Positions 3,988 through 64,000 of a stretch of DNA of 64,000 nt are shown in pieces; the first letter of the stretch is position 1, and the number at the start of each line of letters is the position of its first letter. The notes under the pieces were generated by a model, which worked only from the letters and a program-made list of their open reading frames with translations, did no database searches and had not been told where the DNA came from. Location: NCBI GenBank assembly GCA_964016885.1, contig OZ024742.1, positions 12,896,001 to 12,960,000 on the forward strand, given 5' to 3'. Made by a program: the position numbers and the translations under genes. Source of the stretch: Eledone cirrhosa (lineage: Eukaryota).

Positions 3988-4263
3988 TAATTGCCTTATG
4001 TTGTTTATTACATAATTATTAAGCTCTGTTACCTACATAGAGTACTCTTTTTTCCTGGACTTTTCCGACGGAATTACTTCATTCACACATATATATAAAT
4101 ATACATATATATATATATTTATATATGTGTGTGTATGTGTGTGTGTGTGTGTGTGTGTGTGTGTGTGTGTGTGTGTGTGTGTGTGTGTGTGTGTGTGTGT
4201 GTGTGTGTGTGTGTGTGTGTGTGTGTGCATGTGTGTGTGCGTGTGTGTATGTATATATATATA

Positions 4264-4457
4264 CGAGGGTAGGCTGAAAAATTCATAGGCTTGCCATGAA
4301 GGAGTGATGCTAAAGCTGTGGAATCTTCCATGTATTAATTTCAACTCTTATTAATAATACATTGTTTCTTTCCGGGAACTATGTTAAAAAATAAACCCCA
4401 TTTGGTCATTCCATGAGAGTATCTTGGTCAGCATATGAACTTTTCAGCCGACCCTCG
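4264..4457. mobile_element. Mariner/Tc1-type MITE with ~25-bp TIRs and TA target duplication
   Basis: TA|CGAGGGTAGGCTGAAAAATTCATA ... TATGAACTTTTCAGCCGACCCTCG|TA. Confidence 0.85.
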
Positions 4458-4464
4458 TACATCG

Positions 4465-4590
4465 AATTCAGTATTTTACTGATACGTTATTTTATCGACC
4501 CCAGAAGGATGACAGGCAAGATTAACTTTGGCAGGATTTGAACTCAGAACATAAAGGGCCGTAAGAAAATATGATAAAGCCTTTTGTCTC
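4465..4590 (-). mobile_element. SINE family A fragment
   Basis: TTTTATCGACCCC...GGATTTGAACTC is the reverse complement of family A body and B-box. Confidence 0.7.
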
Positions 4591-4633
4591 TGTTTACCTG
4601 TTAAATTATTCACTATACAGAGGAGATGTAGTG

Positions 4634-4980
4634 ACAGGTTGGTGGAGCGTCTGACAAAAATACCATTAAGATATTTCTTCTGGTTCTTTACATTTTGTGT
4701 TCAAATCCCACCGAGGTCAACTTTGCCTTTTATTTTTCAGGAATAATTTCAGTCAATAATATAAAATCAATTTCAGTCAATAATATAAAGTCAATTTCAG
4801 TCAATAATATAATGTCAATTTCAGTCAATAATATAAAGTCAATTTCAGTCAATAATATAATGTCAATTTCAGTCAATAATATAAAGTGCCAATTTCAGTC
4901 AATAATATAAAGTGCCAATCAAGTTCTGGGGTAATTAATTTAACCCTTTCCCTAAATTTACTGGGCTCATGAAATCAATA
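4634..4980 (+). mobile_element. SINE family A with internal 24-bp tandem expansion (~4746-4912)
   Basis: GTTCAAATCCC B-box, then ATTTCAGTCAATAATATAAAGTCA about 7 times. Confidence 0.65.
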
Positions 4981-5479
4981 TGTTCCTTACATACAGGCTG
5001 GTATTTCACCACTGAACTCAATAAACTTTTACGTTTGTTCTTTCTCCTCAACAACATTCCTTTACTGATATGTTGGGGGTTTTATTGTGGGTTTTTGTAG
5101 GGGGTTTGTAGGGGTTTTGTTGTTGTTTTTAAGTTCTGGTTCCATACAAGTGTGTTTTGTTCCAATGTTTGCAGCCATGCCAAATATCATATCAGCTGTT
5201 CGCCTCACACTCTTTGGAGAAGGATAAAAAAAATATCTCAACGTTGTCCTTTTTTGTGTGTGGTAGTGTGGAGGGAGTGTGTATGAAGAGGAGTGTTTGT
5301 GTGTGGGGGGTGGGGGTTAAGGGTGTGTGTTGGGTGTATGGGAGTGTGGAAGTGTGTGAGATTGTGTGTATGTGTATGTTGGGGTGTGACAGTGTGGTTG
5401 TGTTGGGGCTGGACTCATCTTATAATTTTGTTTACATTCTTCTAAATAAGTTTATCTTTAGATAATTTCTAATATTTGT

Positions 5480-59983: not shown

Positions 59984-61374
59984 ATATATATATATATATA
60001 TGTATATATATATATATATATATATATATATATATATACATATATATATATATATATATATATATATATATATATATATATATATACATGGAAAGTTATA
60101 TTTAAAATTGTTGGGTTACAACTAGTAAATATTTATAACTGATATAAAAGCACTCGACAAATATTTGGAGTATATTTACAATATTAAATAAATGGAAAAC
60201 TATATTTATAAAACCATATTTATTTCATTATATATATTTCGGGGATATCATATTAACAATATGCTATGCCTTCATCAGACAAAATACAATATAAACAGTT
60301 TTATAGATAAATAGATTCGACATACCGTTATAACACCGACTTCATTTGAAGAGGTTTAAGCTGGCAGTGAAAAAATTTTACACAGAGAGAAAGAAAGAGA
60401 GAAAACAGAAAGAAAGACAGAAAACGAAGAAAAGGAAGAAAAAGAAGAGAAAGAGGAAATGCATGGAACAAAATAGAGAGATGGAAAGATAGATAAAGCG
60501 AAGAACTTCATGTAAAGAAACAGAAAGAGATATATATATATAGAGAGAGAGGAAATAGAGATAGATACATATATATATAGATAATTAGGTGGTGGGAGGT
60601 CATTTTGAGTAAATGTATCAATGATACGTTTATTTATTTATTTATTTATTTAGCTCAAGTATTAATGTAAGGGAGATATATAGAGAGGGAAACAATATAG
60701 AGAGAGGAAAAAAATAGCGAGAGGAAAAAAAATATAGAGAGAGGAAAAAAATAGCGAGAGAAAAAAAAAAAAAAAAAAAAAAAAAATTTTTAAATAGTCA
60801 GATATATTCGAGGCGTAAAAACCCTATGTTTTAATGTATTAGTATTTATAAAACTTACACTATATTGTAAATATCAGTATTCTTGAATGAGACAAGTATC
60901 CATAATGTGTGAAAATTAATTATCTTATGTTTAGTTTTAAAAAATTCATATGTTTATGTGACAGCTACAAACATCCATGCGAATCCAACTGATTCACTCT
61001 GCAAACTCTAAGTTCACGGAAAACATTCTCAATGTGGTATAAAAATTTGAGCATACAAATATGTGTATTATTATTCCTGTCATTACTCTACAAGATTATC
61101 TATCAAGCAGAAATAGAGAGCAGATTTCAATATACTAATAAAAATATATATCATAAACAAAACTAAAAATAAAAAGATAACAATAATAATAATAAGTAAA
61201 AATATAGAATAGAAAACTAAAAAAATATTACGAAAGAATATTACATAATAAATAATAAAAATATTATATATTAAACATACTACGTATTAAAAAATATTAC
61301 GTATTAAAAATTTACATATTAAAGATATTAAAAATAAAATAAAATAAAAAATAAAAAATATTATAGAATACTAC

Positions 61375-61503
61375 AATAATAAAAATAAAAATAAAAATAA
61401 AAATAAAAATAAAAATAAAAATAAAAATAAAAATAAAAATAAAAATAAAAATAAAAATAAAAATAAAAATAAAAATAAAAATAAAAATAAAAATAAAAAT
61501 AAA
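61375..61503. repeat. (ATAAAA)n hexanucleotide repeat in the PLE 3' UTR
   Basis: Direct. Confidence 0.95.
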
Positions 61504-61859
61504 CCACAAAGATCAACCCTTCAAAGTTAATTGACAATATATTGCCAAGTTCATTACAAGACAAAGCCAAAAATTATCTATCAAATCACATCTAGCAAAG
61601 ATCCTTTCAAAAAGATTATGATGTCCAATTAGGTCTACATATGTTCTTATATTTAATATAGAAGTTTATCTAGTGTAAGGTTTATTCAAAAAATTTGGAG
61701 CATCAGCTTTTAGGGTAGCTTAATTTTTCATGAGGAATGTTTAGATAAAAATAAAATAAAAATAAACAATAAAAAAGAGTAAAAAGAAGGAATCAAAGAT
61801 TTAGGAATCAAAAATTTATCGGCTAGTTTCCCATATAAATATAAATCAAACAAAATATA

Positions 61860-63090
61860 CTACATTTTAAATTTAAATTTATATTTAAACGTTGAGTTTA
61901 ATCTATGTTTGCAACAACTGAATAAATTTGTCCGTAGGTTAAGGGAATTTTTAGATTTTAGTATAAAGAATATCTCCTCTGCGCAGAGGTCACATGTCTC
62001 AGAGGATGAATTAAAAGGAATCCCTCTTGAGACTATATTCCAAGCCGTCGAATATCTAACGTTATCTAGCTTAAGTTGCCAGAGTACGCCTGATAGTGCC
62101 GTTGAAGATTTTTTACTTGGATCTGTGAAATAATTCTTGTGGTTATTATAGCGAAGTTTAAATTCCGTCGATGTGGAACCGACGTAGTTAAAAGAATTAG
62201 AGTCAGTATTAACATTACAATTGTATACTATATTTTTAACTAAGCAGTTGTTATTTAACGGACATTTAGATCTATCTCTACAGTTACATTTGTTAACTTG
62301 TATATTATTTATGCTATTATCAGTAGGTTTTAAGTTCCTATTATTTATTCTATTAATATTTTGTGCTAAATTTTTGGTGGATGAGTAGGTTAATTTAATT
62401 GTATGCCTATTGAAAATTGAGTGATACCTATGTGTTCTAGGGAAGCGATTATCAAGAGCTTTGAAAAATAATTTAGCGATGTGGGTTTTAATGTTTAGTG
62501 AGAAAGGGGGGCAAACCAAATTATGTTCCTAGTTCTATTTCTTTTTTGTCCTTTGGAATTATTGTAATGCTTTCTATTATAGTTGTTAATGTTGTTGCCG
62601 TAATTAAAAAAGTTGTTACTTTGTTTAGTTTGTCTATCATTATCTATGTACACAATCTTATCAGCATATCCTGCCCTAGCTAGTGCTTCATTATAGTATT
62701 GGGCCTTTTCGTCGAAAATCTTTCTATTCGACGAGATCCTAGAGATACGTTTTTGAACTGAGTTTACTATAGTGTTTTTGCCAGATCTGGGGTGGTTAGA
62801 GTTAAAGTTGACATAGTTTAAGTTTTCATTCAACTTGTGAAAAGGATAGTGGAGACATGTGTTGAGATTTAATGTTATATCTAGGAAATTGACTATTCTA
62901 TGGTTGTTCTCAATTTCTATTTTAAGGTTAAAGTAATTAAAAATTTTTGTAATTTGTTTACATTTTCTATTTAGTTCAGGGTTATTATTATTAATAAGTA
63001 AAAGCATGTCATCCCTATATAAACCTCCGGTAGTACCAGGTATTTTCCTATGTAGCGAATTGATTAAAAATAAGCCCACAAGGTCAGTTA
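61860..63090 (-). pseudogene. PLE ORF C-terminal half (RT YRDD, thumb, GIY-YIG), one frameshift near 62510
   Basis: GLYRDD, VNFLDITLNL, SNHP, NIVYNC...YVGSTSTEFKLRYNNH, CDLC...CCKH. Confidence 0.92.
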
Positions 63091-63875
63091 CCTCTCTCTC
63101 TATATATATATATATCTTTCTGTTTCTTTACATGAAGTTCTTCGCTTTATCTATCTTTCCATCTCTCTATTTTGTTCCATGCATTTCCTCTTTCTCTTCT
63201 TTTTCTTCCTTTTCTTCGTTTTCTGTCTTTCTTTCTGGTTTCTCTCTTTCTTTCTCTCTGTGTAAAATTTTTTCGCTGCCAGCTTAAACCTCTTCAAATG
63301 AAGTCGGTGTTATAACGGTATGTCGAATCTATTTATCTATAAAACTGTTTATATTGTATTTTGTCTGATGAAGGCATAGCATATTGTTAATATGATATCC
63401 CCGAAATATATATAATGAAATAAATATGGTTTTATAAATATAGTTTTCCATTTATTTAATATTGTATATATATATATATATATATATATATATATATATA
63501 TATATATATATATACAAACATAAATTATCGAGATTCGCATTTCGGTCCACGAAATAACGAAAAACAACCTCCGAGATGTGTGGCAAGTGCTCAATGATTA
63601 GGATGAACCAGAGCTATAACAAACCTTAAAGGCCAAACACACTGAGACGATGGTTAAACAATCATTTGCATATATATATATATATATATATATATATATA
63701 TATATATATATATATACATATATATACATATATATACATATATATATATACATATATACATATACATATATATATATATATACACATATATATATATATA
63801 TATATATATATACATATATATATATATATATATATATATATATATATATATATATATATATATATATATATATAT

Positions 63876-64000
63876 AACGAAGGAAATGTGGTAAGGAACC
63901 AGGTGGACCATAACGCACCAAAGTACTCAATAGGAACAAGTGAGACCCCGACGGCTGAGCTCAAGCCGTTTCGACGGCTAATTCTGTACAGAATTAGCCG
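63876..64000 (-). mobile_element. Family P cassette, runs off the window end
   Basis: GTGGTAAGGAACC...AAGTACTCAAT...GACCCCGACGGCTGAGCTC...CGGCTAATTCTGTACAGAATTAGCCG. Confidence 0.8.

Follow-up and report, generated by a model that had tools for sequence, protein, structure and literature searches.

The 64,000-nucleotide stretch of the Eledone cirrhosa genome analysed here (assembly GCA_964016885.1, contig OZ024742.1, positions 12,896,001 to 12,960,000; hereafter the window) is AT-rich and dense in microsatellites, and belongs to a genome of 3.0 Gb. Positions 59982-63514 are occupied by a Penelope-like element (PLE) inserted in a (TA)n run. The insertion consists of an inverted, tail-less copy of the pseudo-long terminal repeat (pLTR), a truncated open reading frame (ORF) and a direct pLTR followed by a 92-nt tail. 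The tail contains one copy of a quasi-palindromic word, RTYGAGTRCTY, which a first reading of the window (the original prediction) had noted at 14 places and linked to hammerhead ribozymes. As that prediction held, the copy at position 60148 lies in the terminus of a coding PLE, namely in the 3' pLTR and tail. Here we describe the word as one arm of a bulged hairpin that occurs twice in the leader of these elements and just ahead of which the element ends lie, and we propose a model in which the hairpin may set the point where reverse transcription starts.

The word and the elements that carry it

All 14 sites bear a GAG-centred word on the strand originally assigned to them, although only seven have the exact form RTYGAGTRCTY (7212, 11421, 31924, 32182, 50442, 60148 and 63921). 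At 4040 and 31241 the GAG is preceded by ATA, and the words at 18144, 20628, 32708, 42484 and 63585 deviate internally. The strict word occurs seven times in the window against 0.43 expected, a count reached in 0 of 100 shuffles, and the shorter GAGYRCTY gives 19 strand-hits against 5.5 expected. The enrichment of the word is genuine, though most hammerheads lack it. A TTAC(C/T) said often to follow proved to be family-specific and was ruled out as a component of the signal, being present in only 2 of 24 families from outside this genome. All-against-all alignment collapses the 14 sites to 10 families, so they are not 14 independent cases; three families have several sites (4040/31241, 7212/63921 and 18144/32708/42484).

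Six of the ten families can be tied to the Hydra clade of PLEs, whose diagnostic features are RWK, DKT in place of DKG, a CxCX5C linker and a C-terminal endonuclease (EN) without CCHH (PMC8557442). A near-full ORF of the 60148 family in L124 (L-numbers denote loci returned by searches of this genome or of outside collections) has RWR, SDKT, CxCX5C and no CCHH, and the ORFs of outside relatives mostly have DKT or DKS and RWK or RWR. In the window itself, the linker and the C-terminal GIY-YIG-type EN lacking CCHH are seen at 61860-62528. The Pfam GIY-YIG model gave no score for this EN. The other traits described for the clade (PMC8557442) are likewise present: a hammerhead in the pLTR, an inverted 5' copy and an optional tail in the insertion at 59982-63514, and (TA)n targets, which 76 of 94 copy ends abut. 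Besides the 60148 family, those of 7212/63921, 32182, 50442 and 20628 are tied directly to the clade. The tie is indirect for 11421, through a decayed ORF start after the second hairpin in L468 and a relative, L475, with a Hydra ORF. The 11421 family (L338, L337, L468) has a non-coding body of more than 1 kb and a non-canonical 5' ribozyme core; it is probably an internally deleted Hydra derivative. Across the ORF-bearing families the reverse transcriptase (RT) is 42-67% identical to that of L124, and on this identity together with the diagnostic motifs the carriers are assigned to the Hydra clade. When the spacers between the two hairpins are compared, 24 of 28 family pairs score no higher than shuffled sequence. 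At the protein level it is therefore wrong to call the families unrelated, as had been done; at the DNA level it is equally wrong to treat them as alignable homologues that share the word by simple descent, the objection that had been foreseen.

The 63585 family consists of a non-coding unit of ~570-580 bp arranged head to tail (L350:140-1500, L351:4660-5935), with a hairpin and without a canonical hammerhead. About 1,900 first-look candidates for this unit exist in the genome, and it looks like a non-autonomous partner.

The word is the 3' arm of a bulged hairpin

When the families are aligned on the word, an upstream RCTC pairs with GAGY, a 2-nt bulge follows, and beyond it lies a stem of free sequence. 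RTYGAGTRCTY is thus only the 3' arm of a larger unit, RCUC-(variable stem-loop)-UN bulge-GAGY-RCUY, and the linear quasi-palindrome originally proposed gives way to this hairpin, present twice per leader (Table 1). A purely linear palindrome was rejected: a structure-only descriptor that ignores the last four letters matches 10 places in the window, all of them among the 14 sites, and the other four sites are decayed or irregular hairpins. In 960 kb of held-out sequence the fold descriptor gives 48 matches, compared with four in the reversed sequence, and (TA)4 lies within 100 nt on the 3' side of 38 of the 48 and on the 5' side of 13. No Rfam covariance model matched the hairpin, either in the window or in 16 leader-bearing loci.

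Pairing was assessed in 64 hairpins from 24 outside and eight own-genome families. Because these were anchored on the fixed words only, the lower stem and the 3' word are present by construction, which is not so for the upper stem. If the bulge is set at 2 nt, upper pairs one, two and three are present in 59, 44 and 41 of the 64 hairpins, against 46.6, 26.0 and 23.9 after shuffling; in registers with a 1-nt or 3-nt bulge, upper pairing is at chance. The first upper pair is C-G 39 times and U-A 20 times, and the foot pair is G-C in 54 hairpins, A-U in six, G-U in two and A-C in two. The first base of the bulge is U in 62 of 64, and the CUC/GAG pairs have a probability above 0.5 in 54 of 64. By comparison with shuffles that ignore relatedness, the upper stem covaries, with compensatory changes. 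The bases preceding the foot of the hairpin are AT-rich.

Two hairpins precede the open reading frame

Intact leaders run in the order hammerhead, hairpin 1, hairpin 2, ATG. The whole arrangement of leader, two hairpins, ATG and Hydra ORF was found in L124, L470, L471, L472, L474, L475, L477 (in which the 5' arm is kept in hairpin 2 only) and L478, with hairpin 2 sitting 35-73 nt ahead of the ORF start. A genome-wide search with the two-copy pattern gave 2421 matches, and the reversed control gave 496. To these leaders we added an outside set, collected by a Hydra-alignment scan and made up of 79 metagenome loci (the best 80 of 462 confirmed) and 11 loci from genome collections; an earlier metagenome scan with a single protein and a viral scan had returned no relative. 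The outside loci are probably animal DNA within those assemblies. Hydra-type PLE ORFs at L457-L467 lie in contigs filed as bacterial genomes or metagenome-assembled genomes, likely through host contamination. Leaders could be scored at 57 outside loci, in 39 families, that have at least 140 nt ahead of the ORF start, and two hairpins were found at 33 of these loci and in 24 of the families. The outside leaders give 81 sense and 16 antisense matches, compared with 4 in 414 windows inside ORFs.

Published elements carry the hairpin as well. By eye, it is exact in three of the six consensus sequences given in the supplement of PMC8557442: at the 3' end of Hydra-2_Amil, from a coral, and of Hydra-2_Ajap, and twice at the 5' start of Hydra-1_Ajap, from a sea cucumber. 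Hydra-1_Crog has a variant hairpin and Hydra-1_Amil a partial one, and none was seen in the supplement passages giving Hydra-1_Obim. The window also contains a PLE of another clade at 54387-59563 (DKS, inverted and direct pLTRs, hammerhead, 59-nt tail). The hairpin is absent from this element and its relatives, despite their hammerhead and tail. In the tandem copy, one and the same short word (AAT|ATCG) contains both ends of the element at 54387-59563, a hint that a start signal of another kind may be repeated here.

Element ends lie just 5' of either hairpin

The ends of 94 copies from eight families were mapped against natural tandem references in 1.02 Mb of this genome (96 stretches plus the window). 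Among the 76 that abut (TA)n, 68 lie at -9 to +2 nt relative to the foot of one or other hairpin, and 55 lie within -8 to 0, where 7.9% would be expected if ends were uniform; the offset is blurred because the alignments continue into the repeat for a few bases. Of the remaining eight, five reflect subfamily mismatches immediately ahead of the repeat, and three fall within a loop that is AT-rich. The real distances in L124 are 7 and 6 nt from end to hairpin. Outside this genome, 40 pLTRs were mapped and 22 were left once 15 tandem cases and three at a contig end had been removed; 15 of these 22 end at -4 to 0 of a foot, in 11 families, although two pairs look like the same insertion.

The two hairpins are spaced 57-83 nt apart in the outside loci and 74-99 nt apart in this genome. 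The end offset stays constant while the spacing varies over this range of 57-99 nt, and the tail follows the spacing: since both ends sit at hairpin feet, the length of the tail equals the distance between hairpin 1 and hairpin 2. Both ends are situated 5' of the hairpin they belong to, and hairpin 2 is missing from tailed ends. It was hairpin 1 that the first reading of the window met, because only tailed ends retain it.

Relation to the hammerhead ribozyme

The word had been reported always to lie 3' of a hammerhead or half of one. This stands in part, for a descriptor recognizes a whole core upstream of four of the 14 sites (4040, 32182, 32708 and 60148) and of none of the remaining 10. A core is visible by eye at 31241 and 18144 and a degenerate core at 50442, whereas 7212, 63921, 42484 and 11421 have the 3' half only. 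The site at 20628, taken for an orphan, is really the tail of another Hydra family. Every copy seen of that family (L017, L032, L090, L473) has a variant hammerhead core, CAGAAGA for CUGANGA. No hammerhead was found in the 31924 family. Rfam detected no hammerhead in the window, where nothing reached the gathering score and the matches are microsatellite or fold-back noise, and it gave a single match, with E 0.82, across the 16 leader-bearing loci.

A held-out set of 80 evenly spaced 10-kb stretches (800 kb) yielded 69 hammerhead candidates, and the 150 nt downstream of each were searched. The expected enrichment in position and strand is present, the strict word following six of the 69 in sense, at +68 to +74, and none in antisense, against 0.21 expected; all six, however, are members of the 60148 superfamily. 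GAGYRCTY is present downstream of 12 of the 69 (0.89 expected), with seven antisense matches that arise because the word is palindromic. A further 26 candidates have a (TA)n end within 75 nt and no hairpin, and lack the word because tail-less ends stop short of hairpin 1; 38 have neither hairpin nor (TA)n end. In most families the hammerhead lies 40-110 nt upstream of the hairpin, at a variable distance. It is an element separate from the hairpin, and some hairpin families are without a canonical core. The fixed reference of the hairpin is the end of the element and not the ribozyme.

Two side observations concern the ribozyme itself. Fold-back mini insertions at 7069-7244, 32665-32855, 42449-42643 and 1596-1711 have their point of inversion in or beside the hammerhead, of which only the 3' half is left. 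A tandem array at L057:8749-9682 has units of ~311 bp, each with a minimal hammerhead, in the manner of retrozymes and without the hairpin.

A model for the choice of element ends

What might a doubled hairpin do for these elements? We consider it likely, with a probability of about 0.6, that the hairpin is an RNA docking site which makes the RT start just 5' of it. In this model, read-through RNA from a tandem copy would carry the hammerhead, hairpin 1 and hairpin 2. The RT-EN protein would bind a hairpin by its fixed foot (RCUC/GAGY, the U of the bulge and the 3' RCUY), while the upper stem and the loop could vary freely. The EN would then nick a (TA)n target, and the nick would serve as primer on AU-rich bases situated 3-6 nt 5' of the hairpin, so that the hairpin in use would stay uncopied. 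A start at hairpin 2 would produce a tailed end containing hairpin 1, and a start at hairpin 1 a tail-less end, typically on the inverted copy. Stated in its most general form, a duplicated, clade-wide RNA hairpin would serve as a downstream ruler on which the RT docks to start a fixed few bases upstream, the signal in use never being copied and its two copies giving the two ends of every insertion; this we would back at slightly better than even odds. The original prediction had spoken of a common cis-signal for RT/EN recognition or 3'-end formation, and the retained hairpin and fixed end distance fit that idea, with the amendment that the families are related and the unit is a doubled hairpin. 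Judged from sequence, the Hydra families share the hairpin by common descent plus selection. There are precedents for both parts of the model. In vitro, the RT of the anole Poseidon element PAc uses two internal start sites that bound the tail, and it depends on RNA lying about 55 nt 3' of the start site at +111-118 (PMC11167929); the proteins of stringent long interspersed elements (LINEs) bind a cognate stem-loop (PMC4176376).

Several observations count against the docking model, of which the first weighs most. No ORF or hairpin 2 was found for the 4040/31241, 18144/32708/42484, 31924 and 63585 families in 22-52 loci per family and in pattern searches, although their long end is sharp and well defined, and where 63585 units lie in tandem, the sequence that continues beyond the long end has no canonical hairpin. 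Among the outside leaders, 15 of 57 loci (10 of 39 families) have one hairpin and nine (five families) have none. Seven of the 22 outside ends lie at other places; five of these rest on a weak alignment to another subfamily. The upper stem of hairpin 2 is weak, its second pair forming in 18 of 32 cases and its third in 15 of 32. G-U and A-C pairs number 11 and 12 overall and eight and three inside stems, which does not fix the folded strand, and the shuffles behind the covariation take no account of relatedness. Finally, the PAc precedent comes from another clade.

It is conceivable, though unlikely, that the hairpin, or the palindrome GAGYRCTC, is read in DNA, with the EN cutting longer-than-unit cDNA or the donor beside it so that two cut sites yield two ends. 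EN-mediated resolution of the tail has been suggested by Craig et al. (PMC8557442), the tail is required for EN recognition in D. virilis (as cited in PMC11167929), the word has a quasi-palindromic form, a dimer is predicted for the anole protein (PMC11167929), and the G-U counts leave the folded strand unfixed. A cut of this kind is two-sided, and frequent 5' junctions are therefore to be expected at the same sites. A few outside copies (L466, L381, L447) do begin at the foot of a hairpin. At hairpin 2, however, only four places have (TA)5 no more than 30 nt before it, compared with 304 exact copies; 5' junctions are more frequent ahead of hairpin 1, but there they are distributed across 0-30 nt; and 12 junctions internal to the leader are scattered from -83 to +25. 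In addition, PAc obtains its two ends from RT starts (PMC11167929), and covariation in the upper stem calls for a single-stranded fold.

The hairpin could also cause the RNA to be cut at a point a few bases 5' of the foot, by a host nuclease or by the protein of the element, with ordinary priming from the new 3' end. The stem has a constant 3' overhang of 4 nt and the ends lie at its 5' foot, and RNase P cleaves at a stem with a 3' overhang. We nevertheless think such cleavage improbable, given that PAc starts internally on uncut RNA and requires RNA beyond the start (PMC11167929). A role of the doubled hairpin as promoter or translation signal, with ends nearby only because AT-rich bases match the (TA)n target, would suit the position of hairpin 2 so close before the ORF start (35-73 nt), the AT-rich bases ahead of the foot and the residence of promoters in pLTRs (PMC6765202); it is very improbable, as leaders are AT-rich throughout and yet the ends cluster within ~10 nt of both feet in every referenced family. 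Neutral descent or chance, by which the word would be shared merely through family homology, can draw on the single clade formed by the ORF-bearing families (RT 42-67% identical) but is largely refuted by the unalignable spacers (24 of 28 pairs), the compensatory changes in the stem, the 48 descriptor matches against four in reversed sequence and the retention of the hairpin in coral and sea-cucumber elements (PMC8557442 supplement).

Comparison with known systems and implications

For the Hydra clade, a tail of 30-40 bp is given in PMC8557442, compared with the 57-99 nt, equal to the hairpin spacing, found here; the main text of that paper has 0 occurrences of stem-loop, hairpin or palindrome. 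Under the docking model our elements would resemble PAc, in which two start sites bound the tail and RNA 3' of the start is needed (PMC11167929). The starts of PAc, compared here by its description, are in an AC-rich stem-loop within the ORF, and the available account names no repeated signal (PMC11167929); Hydra ends, in contrast, lie in the 5' leader, each before one copy of a conserved hairpin. The stem-loops in the 3' tails of stringent LINEs and short interspersed elements (ZfL2-1/2, UnaL2) are small structures that tie an RNA to its cognate RT, as the hairpin would, and they are common to autonomous and non-autonomous partners, as seems the case here (PMC4176376, PMC1636434). LINEs have one such stem-loop, which is positioned 5' of the priming site, is copied and carries its specificity in the loop (PMC4176376, PMC1636434). 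The Hydra hairpin shares with it a fold backed by covariation, albeit against shuffles that ignore relatedness, and unlike it is doubled, lies 3' of the presumed start, is left out of the copy when in use and has its fixed letters at the foot and bulge. No description of the hairpin was found in Rfam or in the literature searched, subscription papers and Repbase notes being outside our reach. The carriers and RT-recognition stem-loops are thus known kinds, while the hairpin itself appears undescribed and distinct in its doubling and its position beyond the copied region.

How PLEs choose internal start sites, and why the tail is optional, are regarded as open questions (PMC8557442, PMC11167929). 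If the docking model is true, it would provide the first sequence-level rule for the Penelope tail, account for the puzzling optional tail of these PLEs and offer a transferable means of fixing where inside an RNA a telomerase-related RT begins. It would also bear on how the closest retroelement relatives of telomerase find their place on an RNA template. The fixed offset of the hairpin to both ends makes tail formation directly testable, and the hairpin can serve as a marker that delimits Hydra elements and their non-autonomous partners in any genome.

Other features of the window

Table 1. Hairpins and associated candidate features in the window, with the means of recognition where one is recorded
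Positions	Strand	Feature	Recognized by
4023..4047	+	Hairpin, 4040/31241 family, hammerhead 3935-3980 before it	Descriptor
7194..7219	+	Hairpin 1, 7212/63921 Hydra family; intact leader and ORF in L470	Descriptor
11405..11428	+	Hairpin 1, 11421 family	Descriptor
18142..18165	-	Decayed hairpin, 18144/32708/42484 family; missed by descriptor	By eye
20626..20675	-	Hairpin 1, 20628 Hydra family; loop long and AT-rich, upper stem with one mismatch; missed by descriptor	
31224..31248	+	Hairpin, 4040/31241 family, foot G-C replacing A-U	Descriptor
31889..31931	+	Long hairpin, 31924 family	Descriptor
32182..32225	-	Hairpin 1, 32182 Hydra family, hammerhead 32288-32332; intact leader and ORF in L471	Descriptor
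32707..32729	-	Hairpin, 32708 family, hammerhead 32756-32794	Descriptor
42483..42505	-	Hairpin, 32708 family	Descriptor
50442..50485	-	Irregular hairpin 1, 50442 Hydra family, weak upper stem; leader and ORF in L472	
60087..60178	-	92-nt tail, bounded by the short end (hairpin 1 begins 7 nt on) and the long end (6 nt ahead of hairpin 2 in the intact tandem copy, L124)	
60148..60171	-	Hairpin 1 (RCUC-stem/loop-UC bulge-GAGU-GCUU), tail of coding Hydra-clade PLE	Descriptor; minimum-free-energy fold shows lower and upper stem
60224..60285	-	Type I hammerhead, 3' pLTR, predicted cleavage after 60229	Descriptor
61860..63127	-	Hydra-clade ORF, 5'-truncated and frameshifted: RT end, CxCX5C linker, GIY-YIG-type EN without CCHH	
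63131..63465	+	Inverted tail-less pLTR, hammerhead 63365-63414; stops 7 nt short of expected hairpin 1 start	
63585..63614	-	Hairpin, 63585 family	Descriptor
63921..63940	-	Hairpin 1 3' arm, 7212 family; 5' arm deleted in this copy	

A Neptune-like PLE ORF (DKG, CxxC linker, GIY-YIG) occupies 47175-49165, and no hammerhead core was found within 2.6 kb downstream of it. Positions 59650-60000 and 54200-54355 belong to a palindromic repeat of ~350 bp with long arms, situated between (TA)n runs and abundant in other loci. At 37248-37664, a tRNA-like head with A box and B box forms an 87-bp tandem repeat of 4.9 copies.

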